Shown: positions 24,775 to 32,426 of the stretch, piece after piece
How positions within the stretch are numbered: position 1 is the stretch's first letter
Layout: every line of letters starts with the position of its first letter
DNA from: Pseudobdellovibrionaceae bacterium
Lineage (GTDB): Bacteria > Bdellovibrionota > Bdellovibrionia > Bdellovibrionales > Bdellovibrionaceae
DNA: 32,426 bases
Reading direction: 5' to 3'
Assembly: GCA_044359815.1 (NCBI GenBank)
Contig: JBIKLL010000025.1
Coordinates: forward strand, 1 to 32,426
Translations under genes and position numbers: made by a program
The notes under the pieces: model-generated
The model's database searches: none
What the model saw: only the letters and a program-made list of their open reading frames with translations
What the model was told of the DNA's origin: nothing

Positions 24775-27566
24775 ATTTTTAAAGCCTCAACACATTTGGG
24801 GCAAATCCCAGGATGGCTGGGGGTTTTGCCGGTTTCCTCAGAATAAATCCAGCATCGCTGACACTTTTCACCACCAGCAGGGCTGACCTGAATCTGATAT
24901 TTACCTTGGGTTAACGATACCTTTGATACAATTAAAAACTCTCTCAGATCAGAGGTCAATCCTCCTTTTTCATCAAAAGCTTTTAGCCAATCAAACAATT
25001 GACCTTCGGCTGTGATGTGAACCTGGGCCTCCAGGCTGGAGCCAATTTTTTTATCGGCTCTTAATGCTTCCAGTTCCTTTTGCGCTTCAGATCTGACTCT
25101 GATCATTTCATCAAACTGTCCCAGTAATTCTGAATTCTTCCAGATTTCCTGTGGGACTGGGAAGTCCTCTAAAAAGATGCTGTCTTGCTTTGTCTTTTTT
25201 AAATAAGTGTAAGCTTCTTCGGATAAGAAAGACAAAATCGGAGCCATCATTTTCAATAAATTTTCAGTCATAATAAAAATCACAGTTTGAGCAGATTTTC
25301 TGTGAAGGCCTGATTTTTTCCAAGTGTACAATCGGTCTTTCAATATATCTAAATAGGTCGCCGATAAATCCACGGTAAAAAACAAATTCATTAAATGAAA
25401 AGCTTTGTTAAACGAATACTCATCATAGGCTTTAGTGAGCTCCTGTGAAAATTGATAAAATTTTGCCAAAGCCCATTTGTCAATTTTGGTCAGATCCTTA
25501 TGTGGGATTGCTTCCTTGGAAAAATCAAAATCATTCAGCGTTCCCAGCATAAATCTGAGGGTGTTTCTGATTCTGCGATAAGACTCAGTGACTCTGTCAA
25601 ACTCAGCTTGGCCACATTTTATGTCGCCGCCATAATCTTCGTAAACGGTCCAAAAACGCAAAATCTCAGAACCGCTTTTACCAGCGACAACCTGTGGATC
25701 GACCACATTGCCTTTTGATTTGCTCATTTTAAAACCCTGTGAATCAGTCACAAAACCATGGGTGATCAGGGCTTTAAAGGGGGCCTGATTATTGGTGGCC
25801 AAAGATGAAATCAACGAAGTATTAAACCAACCTCGATGTTGATCGCTGCCTTCCAGATATAAATCAGCTGGGAAGTTCATTCCCTTGCGTTTTTTCTGAA
25901 CGGCTGCATGGCAGATACCAGAATCAAACCAAACGTCAAAAATATCCTTTGATCTTCGGAAGCCCTTAGATCCAAATTCGCCCTGAGGTTTTATAGATTT
26001 TAATAGCTCGTCAACTGCGGGTGAATAAAAACTTTCGATACCGCCTTTTTCAACCACATTCGCGACTTTTTCAATCAAAGCTAAATCAATCAAAGGCTTG
26101 TTTGTTTGATTGCAAAAAAACACTGGGATTGGAACACCCCAAACCCTTTGTCGGCTTAGACACCAGTCAGGGCGGCCCTCCATCATTGATTGAAAGCGAG
26201 CTTTTCCCCAAGAAGGAAAAAAACCAATTTCGTTGATTGAGCTCAAGGCTTTTTTGCGGATATCATTCTCGGGGTTGTCCAAACCTAAAAACCACTGTGG
26301 AGTGGCTCTGAATATCAATGGAACTTTACTGCGCCAACAATGGGGATAGCTGTGTTCGATTTCTTTGTATCCCAGTAATTGATTTGCTGACTTCAGTTTT
26401 TCAACAATCAATGGGTTGGCTTTAAAAATATTCATACCCTTCATTTCGGGATATTCATCTGTGTAGAGGCCCTTTTCATCAACAGGGCTCAGTACTTTTA
26501 GACCATATTTCAGCCCGACTTTGTAATCGTCCGCTCCGTGGCCCGGAGCTGTGTGGACGCAGCCTGTGCCGGCCTCGGCTGTAACGTGGGGGCCCAGCAC
26601 AATCAGCGAATCTCGATCTAAAAATGGATGTCTGGCCAAACCTTTTTCCAGCAATGAACCTTTGAATTTAAATTTAGCATCCGATAATTTTAAGCCCGTG
26701 TCTTTTTCAAAAAAATCTTTCAGAGCTGTAGCTACTATCAAAAGCTCCTTTGTCTCGAGCAATTCAAACACGCCATATTCAAAATCGGCATTTAAACAAA
26801 CACCCAAATTTGCCGGAAGGGTCCAAGGAGTCGTTGTCCAAATAACCAAAGAGGTTTTTGATGATGGCGAATTTATTTTTTTAAGAGTTGCTGCATCTTT
26901 GATTTCGAACTTCACATATATCGCTGGGCTTTTGTGCGGATGGTATTCGACTTCGGCATCAGCCAAAGCTGTTTGTAAAACCCAATTCCAGTAAACTGGC
27001 TTTGTGCCCAAATAGATCAAACCTTTTGCGTAGGCCTTTGCAAATTCACGCATTTGTTCAGCCTCATAAGCGGAATCCATTGTGTAATAGGGATTTTCCC
27101 AGTCAGCCAAGACACCTAAACGCTTAAACTGAGGTTGTTGGTGGTCAATCCATTTTTTGGCTTCCTGTCGGCAAAGGGTTCGCAACTGATCGTCGTTTTT
27201 TTCATTCAGCTTACTGCCCAGTGATTTCATCACAGCATGTTCGATGGGCAGTCCATGACAGTCCCATCCAGGGATAAAGGGTGATTGAAAGCCCTTCATG
27301 TTTTTGTATTTGATAATAATGTCTTTTAAAATTTTATTAAGTGCATGACCTATGTGAATTGATCCATTTGCATAGGGTGGTCCATCTGGCAAAGTGAATT
27401 TGGTTTTAGTCGCATTTTTTTGCTGAAGCTTTTGATAGATTTTTTGATCATCCCATTTTTTGATAATTTCAGGTTCTTTAACCGGTAAATTTCCCTTCAT
27501 AGGAAAATCAGTTATGGGCAAATGGACAGTGGTTTTGTAATCAGGGGTGTTGTTTTCAGAGTTCAT
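24771..27566 (-). CDS. ileS: isoleucine--tRNA ligase (bacterial type 1)
   Basis: DGPPYANGSIHIGH, GWDCHGLP, WTTTPWT, EGSDQHRGWF, KMSKS and C-terminal CQRC...CPKC. Confidence 0.98.
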   Translation of the reverse strand: MNSENNTPDYKTTVHLPITDFPMKGNLPVKEPEIIKKWDDQKIYQKLQQKNATKTKFTLPDGPPYANGSIHIGHALNKILKDIIIKYKNMKGFQSPFIPGWDCHGLPIEHAVMKSLGSKLNEKNDDQLRTLCRQEAKKWIDHQQPQFKRLGVLADWENPYYTMDSAYEAEQMREFAKAYAKGLIYLGTKPVYWNWVLQTALADAEVEYHPHKSPAIYVKFEIKDAATLKKINSPSSKTSLVIWTTTPWTLPANLGVCLNADFEYGVFELLETKELLIVATALKDFFEKDTGLKLSDAKFKFKGSLLEKGLARHPFLDRDSLIVLGPHVTAEAGTGCVHTAPGHGADDYKVGLKYGLKVLSPVDEKGLYTDEYPEMKGMNIFKANPLIVEKLKSANQLLGYKEIEHSYPHCWRSKVPLIFRATPQWFLGLDNPENDIRKKALSSINEIGFFPSWGKARFQSMMEGRPDWCLSRQRVWGVPIPVFFCNQTNKPLIDLALIEKVANVVEKGGIESFYSPAVDELLKSIKPQGEFGSKGFRRSKDIFDVWFDSGICHAAVQKKRKGMNFPADLYLEGSDQHRGWFNTSLISSLATNNQAPFKALITHGFVTDSQGFKMSKSKGNVVDPQVVAGKSGSEILRFWTVYEDYGGDIKCGQAEFDRVTESYRRIRNTLRFMLGTLNDFDFSKEAIPHKDLTKIDKWALAKFYQFSQELTKAYDEYSFNKAFHLMNLFFTVDLSATYLDILKDRLYTWKKSGLHRKSAQTVIFIMTENLLKMMAPILSFLSEEAYTYLKKTKQDSIFLEDFPVPQEIWKNSELLGQFDEMIRVRSEAQKELEALRADKKIGSSLEAQVHITAEGQLFDWLKAFDEKGGLTSDLREFLIVSKVSLTQGKYQIQVSPAGGEKCQRCWIYSEETGKTPSHPGICPKCVEALKI

Positions 27567-27589
27567 AGACTCAAAAACATAATACAGAT

Positions 27590-28141
27590 CTATTTATCTT
27601 TCATTAAATTCTTTAATTGTTTGTGGCCAACTGAAACAATCAATCGCAGAGCTTCAGACTCTGAAGATAAATTCATCATTTCTTTGACCTCTCGAATCAA
27701 ATTTTGAGTAGTGGAATCCAGGCTGTCAGTGGCTTTCTTAGAGCTATAACTGGGGGGCTCGGTAAATGATGTGTCTTTTTGGATGGCTTCTTCCTTGGGC
27801 GCAGCTTGGCGGTTGTTATTGGGCTGTGCCGTTTGCGATGCCACATTAGGATTTTTTGGATTTGTGTTTTGTAAAGGTGGGGCTTGATAATTTGCTGTGG
27901 GATTTGAATCCAAATCACCCATCAATCCAGCCAGATTTTTCAGTTCGGCCTTAAAATTTTTAATACTGGGTCTTTCCAGAAAATCATTTCCCTGCGATTT
28001 ATATTTCAAATACAGGCTTACTAAAATATCAGGAGTGGAGGCGATTTCTTTAATGCTGTCGTTCTGATTCTGCAGCCACGCATAAGCCTGCACCAATGTG
28101 TCTCTGGTATAGGCTTGAGGTGGAATGGGATTCATGGCCAT
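27590..28141 (-). CDS. hypothetical protein: helical N-domain, Q/N/P-rich linker, small C-domain (ribbon-helix-helix-like)
   Basis: Intact 183-aa ORF filling the gap between the regulator and ileS in the same orientation. Confidence 0.75.
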   Translation of the reverse strand: MAMNPIPPQAYTRDTLVQAYAWLQNQNDSIKEIASTPDILVSLYLKYKSQGNDFLERPSIKNFKAELKNLAGLMGDLDSNPTANYQAPPLQNTNPKNPNVASQTAQPNNNRQAAPKEEAIQKDTSFTEPPSYSSKKATDSLDSTTQNLIREVKEMMNLSSESEALRLIVSVGHKQLKNLMKDK

Positions 28142-28162
28142 GCAGCAAAATTTCCTTAAAAG

Positions 28163-29644
28163 TTAGATTGCAAAGTCTCTTGCATTGATTCCGTATTTTT
28201 CGATTTTGCGGAGCAAAGTCTTTTTAGGAATATTTGCATGAAGTGCTGTCTGGTTGATTCTGCCTTTAAAAGTTTTAAGGGCCTTAATGATGAATTCTTT
28301 TTCAAAGGCTTCTTTTTGAGCGTTAAAATCAAGACCCTCAGTGGCGCCTACTGTCGAAGTCTCTAAGGGTTCATCATCAGTCAGATCATCGGTGCCAAAG
28401 GATTCTAAATCCTCTTCTGTTTCAGCGGTTACCCGTAATGCGATCTCGTCATGAGCATCAGGGATTGAGCATCCAATTGTTTTCAAAACAGATTCTGGCA
28501 GGGATGCCAGTGATAGCAGATTTGAAGTTTCCATAACAAACATATGTTCAATGACATTTTCAAGCTCACGGATATTTCCGGGCCAGTCGTATTTTTTCAG
28601 TGCATTAAGAGTGTCGCCCGCAACGCCCACGATTCTTTTACTGTGAGTGGTGTTGAATTTGCGGATAAACATAGTGATTAAATTTTCTAAATCATCTTTG
28701 CGATCAACAAGGGATGGTAAATACACAGGGATAACATTTAATCGATAAAACAAATCATCACGAAATTCACCGGTCTTGATCATTTGTTCCAGTGGCCTGT
28801 TGGTGGCGGCGACTATCCTGACATTGGTAGGGATTTCGCGGTTAGAACCAACCGGCATAAAGACCTTTTCTTGTAATACCCTAAGTAATTTTACCTGCAT
28901 CATTAAAGGCAAATCACCGACCTCATCCAAAAATAAGGTGCCGCCTTCAGCATACTGAAATTTTCCGATCTTGCGCTGATCTGCTCCAGTGAAAGAGCCC
29001 TTTTCATGTCCAAACAATTCAGACTCAAACAAATTTTCAGGAATGGCTGAACAATTGATGGCAACAAATTTTTCGTCTTTGCGGGCCGAATTGAAATGGA
29101 TGGCTCTGGCAACAAGCTCTTTACCCGTACCGGAAGCTCCACGAATCAAAACAGGAGTGTCAACTTTGGAAACTCTGTGAATGACTCCAAAAACCTTCTG
29201 CATTTGCTGATTTGAACCAATAAATTTTTTGCCGTTTTCAACCAAAACAGGGGCGCTGGCGGCAACATTTGAAATCAGATTGACGGCCAACAAAGCTTTG
29301 TCGATCAGCTTAATTAACTCATCAATTTGCACTGGTTTTGAAAGGTAATTGTAGGCACCGTCTTTTACAGCTTGAACAGCGTTGTCGATGGTCGCAAACG
29401 CAGTCAGCATGATCACGATGATTCCTGGATTAAATTCCTTGATCGCTTTTAAGGCTTCATGTCCATTCAGTCTGGGCATGTCGACGTCCAAAACGACGAC
29501 ATCAAAATTTCCTGAGTTTATTTTTTCTACGGCGTGCAGTCCATCAAAGGCATCTTCAACTTCAAAGCGGTTAGTGCTCAGCAAGCTTGATTTCATTGAC
29601 TGTCTGAGTCCTTGATCGTCATCAACTACTAAGATTTTAATCAT
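28163..29644 (-). CDS. sigma54-dependent response regulator (NtrC family: REC-AAA+-Fis HTH)
   Basis: ILVVDDD and VLDVDMP receiver motifs; GASGTGKE; ESELFGHEKGSFTGA; FLDEV; FRDDLFYRLNV; WPGNIRELEN; C-terminal HTH. Confidence 0.96.
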   Translation of the reverse strand: MIKILVVDDDQGLRQSMKSSLLSTNRFEVEDAFDGLHAVEKINSGNFDVVVLDVDMPRLNGHEALKAIKEFNPGIIVIMLTAFATIDNAVQAVKDGAYNYLSKPVQIDELIKLIDKALLAVNLISNVAASAPVLVENGKKFIGSNQQMQKVFGVIHRVSKVDTPVLIRGASGTGKELVARAIHFNSARKDEKFVAINCSAIPENLFESELFGHEKGSFTGADQRKIGKFQYAEGGTLFLDEVGDLPLMMQVKLLRVLQEKVFMPVGSNREIPTNVRIVAATNRPLEQMIKTGEFRDDLFYRLNVIPVYLPSLVDRKDDLENLITMFIRKFNTTHSKRIVGVAGDTLNALKKYDWPGNIRELENVIEHMFVMETSNLLSLASLPESVLKTIGCSIPDAHDEIALRVTAETEEDLESFGTDDLTDDEPLETSTVGATEGLDFNAQKEAFEKEFIIKALKTFKGRINQTALHANIPKKTLLRKIEKYGINARDFAI

Positions 29645-29757
29645 ATCTGAAAATCCCTCCCAACCAGGTTTTCAGTAGTACCACAGGGATTTTAGCAGGC
29701 TCAAGCAAGTTCAGATAAAATGCAAAGTGTTCGCTAGTTTACGGCAGTAAAGCAGAG

Positions 29758-29766
29758 ATTATAGCA
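29758..29766 (-). promoter_or_regulatory. candidate extended -10 promoter between the kinase and the response regulator
   Basis: Minus strand TG-C-TATAAT (perfect consensus) just after the kinase stop; a second TG-C-TAAAAT at 29689-29697. Confidence 0.5.
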
Positions 29767-29773
29767 TAAGTAA

Positions 29774-31663
29774 TTAAATGAATGGTTGTTTCTGGATTGG
29801 CAGCACAATTGAAAACGTCGAACCCGCTCCCAATGAGCTTTCCACAGAGATTTCCCCACCGTGCAGCTCAACAAAGTATTTGGCCAGATAAAGCCCTAGG
29901 CCGCTGCCTTTAATGGTTGAGGATTTGGCGTTTTTGGATCGAAAAAATTTCATAAAAACATTGGAAATTTCATCACTTGGGATGCCTATGCCCTGATCTG
30001 CAACCTGGATCATCACCCCGTTGGTTGATTCCTCGGTAGAAATCAGAATCTTGGATCCTTCGGGACTGTATTTAATGGCGTTTTCGATCAGGTTGGCCAG
30101 CACCTGTCTGATCAGCTCGGGATCCAACGAAATCGAAAATAAGGGTTCCAATTCCAATACAAAATTGATCCCTTTGGATTTTGCCATAAAGTCGAATTTT
30201 TTAATGGTCTCGCGAACTAACTGATTGATATCCCTGCTTTCGACATGCAGTTCGATCCCCTGGCTTTCGATTTTTGTATAGTTCAAGATTGTGTTAATAA
30301 ATTTAACTAAATCTTCAGATGAAGATTTAATTGTATCCACGGCTTCAGCTTGCGCGGTCGACAGGGCGTTGTGATCTCGTTTAATAAGATCGGTCATTCC
30401 CTGAATCCGAGCCAGAGGGGTTTTTAAATCGTGAGACATCATACCAACAAAATTAGTCTTCAGTGTTTCAACCTCGGATAATAGTTTGTGTTTTTGGTAG
30501 TATTCCCAAGATCTGCGGTTTTCGACAATCAAGCGGTAAGGAATAAAAAAATAGTAGCACAGAAAAACTGCCAGCAAGGGGTGTGATAACTCAATGATAA
30601 TCCCAAATGGATAAAATCCCAAATAAGCAACCAAGCACAGCACTAAACAAGACAGGACTACTAAAATGATTCCTTTCAGCGGTTTAGCAATCAAAACGAT
30701 CTGCACAGTGAATATTGAAATTAAAATAGTGATCAATAAATCCAACCAGTAATTGGTTCTGGTGGGAGACGAGTTTCGTATTAAAGTTTCGATCATGTTT
30801 GCATGAAGCTCTATCATTGGGAGAGCTTCGGGGGATGGGTCCAGTGGGGTGGCTACGTAAAAATCAAATGACTGTCTGAAGTCATCACCAATTAAGACAA
30901 TTTTGTCTTTGAGCTCGTTAGGATCAAAATCCCCTGCGACGACGTTTTCAAAAGGTAGTGTTTTGAAAAATCCTTTTTTGTTGTAGTCGATTAATATTTG
31001 CAGGGATTCAAGGGTTTCAAAAACCCCTTTGATGTTTTTGATGTCTGAAACCGCAGGATTGTAATGGGATGCCAGCTCTTGGTGCAAAAATGTTTGATCC
31101 TGATAGGAAATTAAAATCCGTCTGGAGACTTTATCTTTTGCAAAAGTGTTTTTATCTTTGGTGTGCGGAGCCGAGGCCACCGGTAAAAAATCAAGAGGGG
31201 GCTTTAGGTTCAGGGAACCGTGTTGGCCCTTGATCGCAGTTTCGTCAACAGCCACCACCAGATTTTTGGTGTCTTTTGCGGATTGGATAAACGTATTTGT
31301 GTCTGAAATAGATCCACCAAGAGATTTTAGATCAGAAAAATAGACAAGCTTATAGGCTTGGGTTGTTTTTAGTTTTTCTAACAGTTTTGCGTGGTCAGCA
31401 AAGCTGGGCAGCCTGCCCAATTTAAAAACGGATTCCCGATCAGCAACTATTAAAACAATTTTCTGTGATGAGCTTTGAGTCGGCTTCAGTTGGACTCTGA
31501 CGTCATAAAAAAAACCGTCTAGCTGGTTGGTTGGAATTTTAGTTATTAAAAATGCTACGATGGACGCAAAAAAAGCTCTCTGTAAAAAAACAAATGGGGT
31601 ATTTGCTACCCCATCGAAATTTTTGCCTAATGAAAAATTTAAAAACTTTCTAAAATCAAACAT
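29774..31663 (-). CDS. CHASE2-domain membrane sensor histidine kinase
   Basis: YDVRVQL...KIVLIVAD, DKVSRR, LKDKIVLIG and IELHANMIETL followed by three TM helices (CHASE2 architecture); H-box SHDLKTPL; N-box NLIENAIKYS; DQGIG; GSGLGL. Confidence 0.9.
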   Translation of the reverse strand: MFDFRKFLNFSLGKNFDGVANTPFVFLQRAFFASIVAFLITKIPTNQLDGFFYDVRVQLKPTQSSSQKIVLIVADRESVFKLGRLPSFADHAKLLEKLKTTQAYKLVYFSDLKSLGGSISDTNTFIQSAKDTKNLVVAVDETAIKGQHGSLNLKPPLDFLPVASAPHTKDKNTFAKDKVSRRILISYQDQTFLHQELASHYNPAVSDIKNIKGVFETLESLQILIDYNKKGFFKTLPFENVVAGDFDPNELKDKIVLIGDDFRQSFDFYVATPLDPSPEALPMIELHANMIETLIRNSSPTRTNYWLDLLITILISIFTVQIVLIAKPLKGIILVVLSCLVLCLVAYLGFYPFGIIIELSHPLLAVFLCYYFFIPYRLIVENRRSWEYYQKHKLLSEVETLKTNFVGMMSHDLKTPLARIQGMTDLIKRDHNALSTAQAEAVDTIKSSSEDLVKFINTILNYTKIESQGIELHVESRDINQLVRETIKKFDFMAKSKGINFVLELEPLFSISLDPELIRQVLANLIENAIKYSPEGSKILISTEESTNGVMIQVADQGIGIPSDEISNVFMKFFRSKNAKSSTIKGSGLGLYLAKYFVELHGGEISVESSLGAGSTFSIVLPIQKQPFI

Positions 31664-31669
31664 CCAAAA

Positions 31670-31825
31670 TTAGCGTGATGATTGATCTGTAGGTAGGCAT
31701 TTCAATGATCTGCCTGCCACAGTGACTTTAGTTCCTTGAGAAAGTTTTCTAACGTGAATTTTTGTTGAAGCAGTCACAGCTTTTGAAGCGTCAGTTTTTT
31801 TAACTGGATTCGTATTCTGGTTCAT
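31670..31825 (-). CDS. 51-aa peptide MNQNTNPVKKTDASKAVTASTKIHVRKLSQGTKVTVAGRSLKCLPTDQSSR; candidate RiPP precursor
   Basis: Translated by hand and absent from the ORF track. Strong SD AAGGAGA 5 nt before the ATG; begins 13 nt after the SPASM gene stop and ends 6 nt before the kinase ATG, filling the whole gap. Confidence 0.8.
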   Translation of the reverse strand: MNQNTNPVKKTDASKAVTASTKIHVRKLSQGTKVTVAGRSLKCLPTDQSSR

Positions 31826-31838
31826 AGGGTTCTCCTTT

Positions 31839-32426
31839 TCAGGCTTCGCCTTGTGGCGATCTGCATTTAAGATAATATAAGATTGATGATAAAAGCAAGG
31901 ACCGAGTTCTGTCGCAAAAAGATTTTACGGGTTTATTTTTGTCACCGTTCACTCTTTTGTGAATGTACGAACAACCGCCAGCACAAAGGTTTTTAGCCCA
32001 GCAGCTCTGACAATCAGTTTGTTTGCTAATCGGGTCTAAGTACTTGGAAACTGCATCAGAATTCAAAACCGATTCGTGACCGATTTTTTCAGATTTATCA
32101 TTCACGTCCCAAGGGCAAGCAAAAACTTGATTTTGAGAATCGATCATAAAAAACGAATTTCCGGCGCCACAGTAGTGTTTGACCAAAGCCTGTGTGTCGA
32201 GATTGTGAAACAGTTTATTGATCATTTGAATTTTTAAAAGCTCTGATTCCTGTCCAATCTGATAAGCATGCTCTAAGATTTTGTTAAACCCAGCTACAAA
32301 TTCATTGCTGGCATTGAGATCCTCAAAATTCAAATTGTTCATTGTTGAAGAATCATTCTGTCCAGATTGGTCAACAGTCGTTGCTTGACGTTCAGCTTTA
32401 GAGTCGTGATCACCTTTATAGTCGTG
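31839..32426 (-). CDS. radical SAM/SPASM-domain protein, C-terminal part (start lies beyond the window)
   Basis: Seven-Cys SPASM pattern CGAG-..-ACP...CQSC-x5-C-x3-C-x18-C. The frame stays open from 32342 to the window edge. The CxxxCxxC radical SAM motif itself is not visible. Confidence 0.85.
   Translation of the reverse strand, partial: HDYKGDHDSKAERQATTVDQSGQNDSSTMNNLNFEDLNASNEFVAGFNKILEHAYQIGQESELLKIQMINKLFHNLDTQALVKHYCGAGNSFFMIDSQNQVFACPWDVNDKSEKIGHESVLNSDAVSKYLDPISKQTDCQSCWAKNLCAGGCSYIHKRVNGDKNKPVKSFCDRTRSLLLSSILYYLKCRSPQGEA
32391..32426 (-). repeat. 18-bp tandem repeat inside the SPASM-protein gene (at least 2 copies)
   Basis: CACGACTATAAAGGTGAT / CACGACTCTAAAGCTGAA, 15/18 identical (HDYKGD / HDSKAE); runs to the window edge. 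Confidence 0.55.

Follow-up and report, generated by a model that had tools for sequence, protein, structure and literature searches.

The systems closest to the one described here are two ranthipeptide maturation pairs, CteA/CteB (thermocellin) of Clostridia, which is of the SCIFF type (six Cys in forty-five residues), and PapA/PapB (freyrasin), which is of the Cys-X3-Asp type. In CteA/CteB a short precursor is encoded beside a radical S-adenosylmethionine (SAM) enzyme with a SPASM domain and Cys is the reactive residue. Anaerobic sulfatase maturases (anSME) are SPASM radical SAM enzymes as well, with sulfatases rather than a dedicated small peptide as substrates, and the sulfatase-type motif is C/S-x-P-x-R. 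The agrBDCA operon of staphylococci encodes a maturase (the AgrB protease), a peptide, the sensor kinase AgrC and a LytTR response regulator, and its product is a thiolactone autoinducing peptide. Here, a 51-codon gene of a Pseudobdellovibrionaceae bacterium was compared with these systems. The gene lies between a radical SAM/SPASM enzyme gene and a CHASE2 sensor histidine kinase gene near one end of contig JBIKLL010000025.1 (C109 in our numbering), and "the window" refers to this whole contig of 32,426 bp, which belongs to a 2.95-Mb assembly with 125 contigs and 41% G+C. The system would work like a ranthipeptide/sactipeptide maturation pair, is wired like agrBDCA and is a member of no curated family.

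Our preferred reading of the locus, to which we attach a probability of roughly 0.6, is that the 51-residue product is the precursor of a ribosomally synthesized peptide modified after translation (RiPP) that receives one thioether from the adjacent enzyme, that the genes form a self-activating cassette and that the product is possibly the signal of the CHASE2 kinase. The precursor part of this reading is well supported by comparison with the sequences of relatives. The gene itself is real and encodes a small one-Cys peptide, and the original prediction of a 51-residue minus-strand open reading frame (ORF) with a strong Shine-Dalgarno sequence, a single Cys (C43), a single His and no aromatic residues was confirmed in the sequence. 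The peptide contains seven Lys, three Arg, seven Thr, six Ser, two Asp, one His (H24) and one Cys, is free of Trp, Tyr, Phe and Glu, and ends in VAGRSLKCLPTDQSSR. Its ATG is 13 nt downstream of the radical SAM stop codon (31839-31841), the ORF occupies 156 of the 175 bp separating the radical SAM and kinase genes, and the kinase ATG (31661-31663) follows 6 nt past the peptide stop. The exact peptide exists as a called gene in the protein collection.

The conserved short ORF that had been expected after homologous radical SAM genes was found throughout the relatives. When 61 genomes were searched with the radical SAM fragment of the window, 39 had homologues, among them 33 of the 36 genomes of the same family. 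A short single-Cys ORF was located directly after the radical SAM stop codon in 38 of 38 related genomes, one of these ORFs being truncated where its contig ends. The conserved parts of this ORF were the IxVRKL-like segment and the Cys. A scan of named genome contigs added 80 loci, all but one of which were titled Bdellovibrio, Bdellovibrionaceae, Pseudobdellovibrionaceae, Bdellovibrionales, Bdellovibrionia or Bdellovibrionota. The relatives' set comprised 129 loci and 99 distinct peptides (some genomes were fetched twice), and 59 sequences were aligned with MAFFT (alignment A2). A CHASE2 kinase homologue was located directly after the radical SAM gene in 126 of the 129 loci while the other three end no more than 138 bp past the radical SAM stop. 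In a sample of 200 genomes from the phylum, full-length radical SAM homologues (E value of 1e-60 or better) were present in all twenty genomes of the window's family; homologues were also present in 3/12, 1/1 and 1/14 genomes of three other families and in none elsewhere. The locus not titled after this group (L101, CALQIT020000002.1, titled 'MAG: Streptomyces griseus') featured a Bdellovibrionales-type operon with an enzyme 50% identical to the query, a peptide ending in RRPGCIPQGE and a CHASE2 kinase, and its Streptomyces griseus bin label is probably wrong.

The relatives' peptides had a common layout consisting of an N-terminal basic motif (mostly HIKKVKP), a variable linker, a Gly-rich approach and a C-x-P turn. 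Ninety-six of the 99 distinct peptides contained exactly one Cys and 56 matched the pattern H[IV][KR]K[VLI]. Around the Cys, Pro occurred at position +2 in 92 of 100 peptides, and Gly at -3 in 57 and at -1 in 43. Position +4 was Gly, Arg or Lys in 68 of the 100, Arg or Lys in 22 and Arg in 14, and four residues was the commonest length of the tail after the Cys (34/100). C43 and P45 were the only invariant columns in alignment A2, and the KIHVRKL segment of the window peptide fell in the HIKKVKP columns. This comparison supports the proposed split into leader and core, with KIHVRKL as the likely recognition motif. The cores closest to that of the window (SCLPTD, ACIPTD and RCFPSD) came from loci L064, L084 and L086, where Cys-x-Pro-x-Asp ends the peptide. 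A resemblance of the RSLK residues to the KSLK leader motif of atropopeptides had also been raised and was a coincidence, as the four positions before the Cys (-4 to -1) vary among the relatives and are rich in Gly. Pro45 of the C-x-P turn, like the CHASE2 kinase and sigma-54 context, was missing from the original prediction.

Two variations of the peptide gene were observed among the relatives. Three loci (L015 2008-2280, L047 10060-10328 and L109 4253-4560) carried two tandem peptide genes with different cores, for example GCVPTGVDRK and ACVPQGGEIKR. The peptide of locus L044 (genome G030) was long (61-69 aa) and had a second Cys in its leader (HIKVCKP).

A search of 5.8 billion proteins returned one relative of the window peptide, P0002, which is 50 aa long and 82% identical. 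Seven of the ten differences between the two were within the first 17 residues and the others were R26K, V34I and a tail shorter by one Ser, so KIHVRKL was kept in P0002 except for R26K. Pooled over eight close pairs of relatives (twelve were chosen and four dropped for unequal length), the ratio of nonsynonymous to synonymous polymorphism (pN/pS) was 0.23, which shows at the level of sequence comparison that the relatives' peptide genes are under purifying selection. The window DNA was found in 24 listed sequencing-run entries, which were mostly lake-water metagenomes; no RNA run was among those listed, and this counts neither for nor against the ORF. Contigs from four lake-water runs over 30900-32426 were identical across the peptide ORF and therefore contributed no variants for the selection test, and none extended beyond the contig end.

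Both motifs were combined in a regular expression (H[IV][KR]K[VLI], a spacer of 8-45 residues and C.P no more than 12 residues from the end) and applied to the 87,167 frames of the assembly, defined as stop-to-stop frames of at least 20 aa. Two frames matched, one of which was the peptide ORF. The other, on contig C14, was antisense inside a 383-aa gene and was ruled out as a chance match. With respect to the features of a generic precursor of a radical SAM/SPASM RiPP, the locus had an adjacent, co-directional and conserved short ORF as well as bipartite conservation (a leader motif and a core with Cys) in which the window peptide aligned in both parts, while similarity of the window peptide to the family profile was absent. 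No model in Pfam or NCBIfam matched the window peptide. A scan of the 59 peptides likewise gave no match to SCIFF or any other RiPP-precursor model, and two stray single-member matches (E values of 0.019 and 0.045) were to unrelated families. In the ESM Atlas, the nearest clusters to the peptide scored 0.79-0.80, which is the noise level. The statement that the peptide is unlike SCIFF therefore held, as its Cys is single and it matched none of the NCBIfam or Pfam models.

The radical SAM fragment in the window passed the SPASM domain model TIGR04085 (43.5 bits, cut-off 27) and contained all seven SPASM Cys residues. Its best family matches were PapB (top), a nif11-type maturase and QhpD; none of them came close to its cut-off, as would be expected since the gene is a fragment. 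Four full-length relatives scanned against NCBIfam scored 137-183 bits with PapB (cut-off 340), 149-175 bits with the nif11-type maturase, 107-145 bits with the SCIFF maturase (cut-off 425) and 99-131 bits with QhpD, and PapB was the top match for three of the four. The anSME model gave 57-83 bits against a cut-off of 349. The best sequence match in the Protein Data Bank was CteB (E value 2e-32) while anSME matched at 6e-6. In an AlphaFold2 model of one relative (predicted local distance difference test score, pLDDT, 87.5; predicted template modelling score, pTM, 0.87), the part preceding the radical SAM core consisted of four strands and two helices. This model aligned with CteB at a template modelling (TM) score of 0.79-0.80 over approximately 445 columns, including the N-terminal strand-helix domain, and with anSME at 0.62-0.67 over approximately 385 columns, the matched anSME structures being without the N-terminal domain. 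Judged by sequence and model, the enzyme would thus share with CteB an N-terminal recognition domain, the radical SAM core and the seven-Cys SPASM domain.

The conserved Cys columns of the enzyme family were the CxxxCxxC triad and the seven SPASM Cys only. In the accessible portions of the structural reports, the seven-Cys pattern leaves an open Aux I site in CteB, whereas the auxiliary clusters of anSME are fully ligated with the use of an eighth Cys and Aux I is held by Cys255, 261, 276 and 330. Because the family has seven SPASM Cys in place of the fully ligated arrangement of anSME, it looks like a thioether synthase and not like a sulfatase maturase. The differences from CteA/CteB were in the peptide, which has one Cys compared with six in SCIFF, a different leader motif and no match to the SCIFF model, and in the setting, which is a CHASE2/sigma-54 two-component operon of Bdellovibrionales.

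In CX3D/E motifs, PapB joins Cys to Asp at the beta-carbon or to Glu at the gamma-carbon, and it tolerates spacings of n = 0-6, according to the available part of the report (PMC9413430). An excerpt of a further study describes its coupling of C-terminal carboxylate residues with Cys (PMC12373016). The core of the window peptide, C43-L-P-T-D47, has the form of a CX3D motif, the unit that PapB cross-links, although there is one such motif compared with six in PapA and the invariant Pro at +2 is not a feature of PapA in the portion of its description consulted. The candidate for a ranthipeptide-type acceptor downstream of the Cys (Asp, Glu, Thr or Asn) in the window peptide is the Asp of C-X3-D. 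Across the family, Asp or Glu was downstream of the Cys in only 48 of 100 peptides, only within four residues upstream in 39 and in neither place in 13. The sequences suggest that the peptide probably receives one Cys thioether. A single thioether fits because the nearest characterised relatives of the enzyme are PapB, CteB, the SCIFF maturase and QhpD and because of the seven-Cys SPASM pattern. By analogy with PapA, the thioether could be between C43 and D47, a tentative assignment that we would expect to fail more often than to hold. The invariant Pro may merely shape the turn or may itself take part.

The conserved gene order was radical SAM enzyme, peptide, CHASE2 kinase and sigma-54 activator. 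Pfam matches of the kinase were CHASE2 (5.7e-27), HisKA (2e-16) and HATPase_c (3.6e-28), and hydropathy indicated a transmembrane segment at approximately residues 22-43, a periplasmic CHASE2 domain at approximately 44-304 and transmembrane segments at approximately 305-375, followed by HisKA and HATPase. The regulator matched Response_reg (5e-28), Sigma54_activat (3.3e-72) and HTH_8 (4.3e-06), is separated from the kinase gene by a 129-nt gap in the window and, in 18 of the 20 long loci, followed the kinase gene downstream with the same orientation. In L044, the sigma-54 regulator was upstream of the radical SAM gene on the opposite strand and not after the kinase. In L038/L027/L120 and L058, the kinase match began only at query residue 152-165 with a gap of 588-813 bp after the radical SAM gene, and in these loci the sensor domain may have diverged or an insertion may be present.

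A sigma-54-like element, TGG-N9-TTGC[AT], was identified upstream of the radical SAM start in the relatives, mostly 20-110 bp before it. The best score was 6/7 in 48 of 99 distinct regions and 5/7 in another 33, while regions of equal size inside the kinase gene scored 6 in 1/98 and 5 in 7/98 (8/98 compared with 81/99 upstream). The minus strand of the window at 27000-32426, including the gap between kinase and regulator, had no sigma-54-like element scoring at least 5; the contig ends before the promoter, so the window cannot show it. Next to the promoter, no sigma-54 activator gene other than that of the operon's own regulator was found. As the sigma-54 promoter of the relatives precedes a unit that encodes a sigma-54 activator, these sequences suggest that the cassette probably activates itself. 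The likeness to agrBDCA consists of the gene order, a promoter probably driven by the operon's own regulator and a predicted small ring from a single Cys near the C-terminus. It is one of wiring only, since there are no related proteins and no AgrB protease, AgrC kinase or LytTR regulator, and the locus instead combines a radical SAM maturase, a CHASE2 sensor, a sigma-54 AAA+ activator and a predicted thioether in a Gram-negative predator.

A complex of residues 44-304 of the window CHASE2 domain (alignment A3) with the window peptide (alignment A2) was predicted, and was classed as 'weak support' with a score of 0.43 (runs 0.39, 0.45 and 0.43; best of three controls 0.00), a partner pLDDT of at least 38 and a contact agreement of at least 38%. 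Of the 157 solved complexes, 116 reach the mark for this score, as do 2 of the 215 mismatches. The value of 0.43 lies in a range (0.60 or less) where only 18 of the 157 solved complexes and both mismatches reach the mark, so that a pass there is rated as wrong more often than right if the pairing was not already a likely one. The sensor part of the kinase diverged faster than the kinase core, with a mean identity to the window of 34% compared with 63%. Among 31 genomes, distances between peptide cores followed those between CHASE2 domains after control for kinase-core distance (partial Mantel r 0.32, p 0.0004; reverse test r 0.21, p 0.02), a signal that is a hint only as relatedness inflates such tests. 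That the peptide product is the signal of the kinase is possible, with the odds leaning somewhat to the other side.

Expression data were available for the counterpart operon Bd3357-Bd3360 of Bdellovibrio bacteriovorus HD100, a different organism from that of the window. The peptide of a named B. bacteriovorus contig (L061) was letter-for-letter CAE78161.1 / Q6MI21, which in strains 109J, ATCC 15356 and Tiberius goes by the name of hypothetical or uncharacterized protein. Karunker et al. (2013, PMC3627812) list Bd3358 as a 117-bp hypothetical gene that lies among Bd3357 (1,284 bp, 'heme biosynthesis'), the histidine kinase gene Bd3359 and Bd3360, which encodes a ZraR-type regulator. As we interpret the supplementary table of that study, reads in attack phase and growth phase were 3 and 52 for Bd3357, 1 and 3 for Bd3358, 8 and 63 for Bd3359 and 22 and 132 for Bd3360, and 8597 and 33 for the neighbouring Bd3356. 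In an array of bdelloplast entry, Bd3357-Bd3360 were up-regulated 1.6-, 2.1-, 2.1- and 3.0-fold and were not up-regulated in host-independent cells (Lambert et al. 2010, PMC2797640). In a 2025 time-course proteome, Bd3360 (27 unique peptides) had a log2 fold change of 1.96 at 3 h and was in the 'peak 3 h' cluster, Bd3359 (29 unique peptides) had a log2 fold change of 0.86 at 3 h, and Bd3357 (18 unique peptides) had a rise that was not significant and fell by 7 h (PMC12546842). The HD100 operon is induced inside prey. The supplements of the transposon sequencing paper did not include the Bd3357-Bd3360 tags, and no account of the peptide, or of a connection between it and the kinase, was found in the literature, with most subscription journals outside coverage. 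The 'heme biosynthesis' annotation of Bd3357 masks the RiPP context in keyword searches and is probably a carry-over from NirJ/AhbD-type radical SAM names.

Taken together, the preferred reading would operate as follows. The ORF would give a ribosomally made precursor with a basic leader and a short C-terminal core around the invariant Cys-x-Pro turn, and the KIHVRKL segment would be the handle for the putative N-terminal recognition domain of the enzyme. The open auxiliary Fe-S site of the enzyme would most likely hold the single Cys and direct one intramolecular thioether, for which Asp47 would be the favoured partner (Cys-X3-Asp, as in PapA/PapB), giving a five-residue ring. The peptide gene is translationally packed between the maturase and kinase genes, with the gene of the sigma-54 activator after them. 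If exported, the product may be sensed by the CHASE2 kinase, so that maturase, peptide, kinase and regulator would form an agr-like loop during growth inside prey. An extension of this model, in which the thioether-ringed product is the first natural CHASE2 ligand and closes a sigma-54 autoinduction loop that acts as a confinement or density timer in the sealed prey cell for the passage from filamentous growth to septation and exit, is unlikely to hold in full.

Besides the score range of the predicted complex, several results weigh against the preferred reading. A profile hidden Markov model of the 99 relatives' peptides scored the window peptide at 2.4 bits (E value of approximately 1e3 over the 87,167 frames) and the peptide was absent from the genome-wide matches, so that its sequence score does not by itself reveal it as a member of the family. 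A direct peptide search of the 61 genomes matched only the window itself, with no significant match in the 60 relatives (best E value 0.12). Ten weak matches from that search (E values of 0.12-1.5) were noise; the one in L007, for example, fell within a 552-aa ORF that has the same strand but a different reading frame. Family membership of the window peptide rests on its position and the two motifs because the family is short and compositionally biased with a variable linker. No relative's enzyme among the four scanned reached any NCBIfam equivalog cut-off, and the enzyme is accordingly not a member of the curated ranthipeptide maturase families, PapB and the SCIFF maturase, even though these gave its best matches. 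The recognition domain, the radical SAM core and the promoter are not visible in the window genome as the contig end cuts the radical SAM gene; no other contig of the assembly carries the 5' part, and the only weak match was a different radical SAM gene on C58. The family has no conserved acceptor residue, 52 of the 100 peptides being without Asp or Glu downstream of the Cys, and PapB gave no cross-link on a peptide with a transposed Asp...Cys order, according to the available part of the report cited above (PMC9413430). The peptide has no signal sequence while the CHASE2 domain is periplasmic, and neither a protease nor an exporter was conserved beside the operon (upstream, in the nine long loci listed). 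Finally, Bd3358 was not detected in the time-course proteome (PMC12546842).

The insignificant profile score would suit a chance open frame in the intergenic spacer. This is scarcely credible in view of the Shine-Dalgarno sequence and its spacing, the share of the spacer that the ORF fills, the rarity of the motif pair among the frames of the assembly, the conservative changes in P0002, the purifying selection in the relatives and the transcription of the HD100 counterpart Bd3358. Small proteins that modulate sensor kinases exist, and the product could be an unmodified regulatory protein of this type acting on the kinase or the activator while the radical SAM enzyme has another substrate. However, a leader motif, a variable linker and a short core with an invariant Cys are typical of the conservation of RiPP precursors, the enzyme has a CteB-like N-terminal domain and the ORF always follows the radical SAM gene, which makes this a very improbable explanation. 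The invariant C-x-P and the lack of a conserved thioether acceptor are compatible with a different chemistry, in which the enzyme oxidises the Cys to formylglycine as anSME does on C-x-P-x-R, or makes some other Cys-centred change and no thioether. Arg or Lys at +4 in 22 of the 100 peptides means that members ending in CIPVR carry the sulfatase-type motif, and anSME structures were among the fold matches. We nevertheless consider this improbable. The anSME model scored well below PapB and the sequence match to anSME was weak beside that to CteB, the enzyme family conserves seven Cys and not the eight ligands of anSME, the CteB-aligned N-terminal domain is absent from the anSME matches, and the window peptide has Asp rather than Arg at +4.

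A further alternative, unlikely in our view and still well ahead of the other three, accepts the peptide as the substrate of the enzyme and takes it as an output of the two-component system. The kinase would then sense another cue in the prey periplasm, the activator would turn the operon on, and the modified peptide would act elsewhere, for example on the prey, on competitors or inside the predator. The lack of an exporter or protease linked to the operon is in keeping with this, the sigma-54 promoter before the operon suits plain regulation as well as feedback, and the predicted peptide-CHASE2 complex was classed as 'weak support'. Lambert et al. named only Bd3359/Bd3360 in their text and proposed them as sensors of bdelloplast conditions (PMC2797640), and ligands of CHASE2 domains in general are described as unknown in the part of the literature available (PMC10581220). 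On the other hand, the peptide and kinase genes were inseparable apart from contig ends, the spacing between them in the window is unusually tight for an output gene, and the complex score relative to its controls and the partial Mantel signal lean towards the peptide as the kinase's signal.

If the preferred reading is true, the result is a precursor family for which Pfam and NCBIfam have no entry, with an enzyme below all curated equivalog cut-offs and with the system present in 20/20 of the sampled genomes of the window's family. A dedicated peptide gene 6 nt upstream of the kinase gene would be a concrete candidate for the source of a ligand for the widespread CHASE2 domains. It would also bear on how Bdellovibrio senses the prey interior and times its development, for which Bd3359/Bd3360 have so far been only candidate sensors (PMC2797640). 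The model strain is genetically tractable and the operon has only four genes, which makes the system directly testable and therefore of good interest. The features of the window locus are listed in Table 1.

Table 1. Features of the peptide locus and its neighbours, with positions on the window
Feature	Position	Strand	Basis and remarks
Precursor peptide gene (candidate), 51 aa	31670..31825	minus	ATG-start ORF; positional counterpart of Bd3358 (B. bacteriovorus HD100)
Shine-Dalgarno AAGGAG	31832..31837	minus	Read from the sequence; 6 nt before the peptide ATG (31823-31825)
Leader motif KIHVRKL, residues 22-28	31742..31762	minus	Aligned with the family motif H-I/V-K-K-V/I/L-K-P
Core C43-L-P45-T-D47	31685..31699	minus	C-x-P turn, also a Cys-X3-Asp motif
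Radical SAM/SPASM maturase gene, 3' part (195 codons)	31839..32426	minus	Cut by the contig end; counterpart of Bd3357
CHASE2 sensor histidine kinase, 629 aa	29774..31663	minus	Pfam; counterpart of Bd3359
NtrC/ZraR-type sigma-54 activator response regulator, 493 aa	28163..29644	minus	Pfam; counterpart of Bd3360
183-aa ORF	27590-28141	minus	No Pfam family; between the sigma-54 regulator gene and ileS

At the kinase start (31631-31665), contigs of another organism from three lake-water runs shared 35 bp with the window with five mismatches and were unlike the window on both flanks. This shared stretch is probably a chance or low-complexity match. The 183-aa ORF occupied the corresponding position in 18 of the 20 long loci at 35-73% identity, with the N-terminal part conserved best. 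NCBIfam gave weak hints for this ORF (FlhF N-terminus, E value 0.045), and it may belong to the operon unit.

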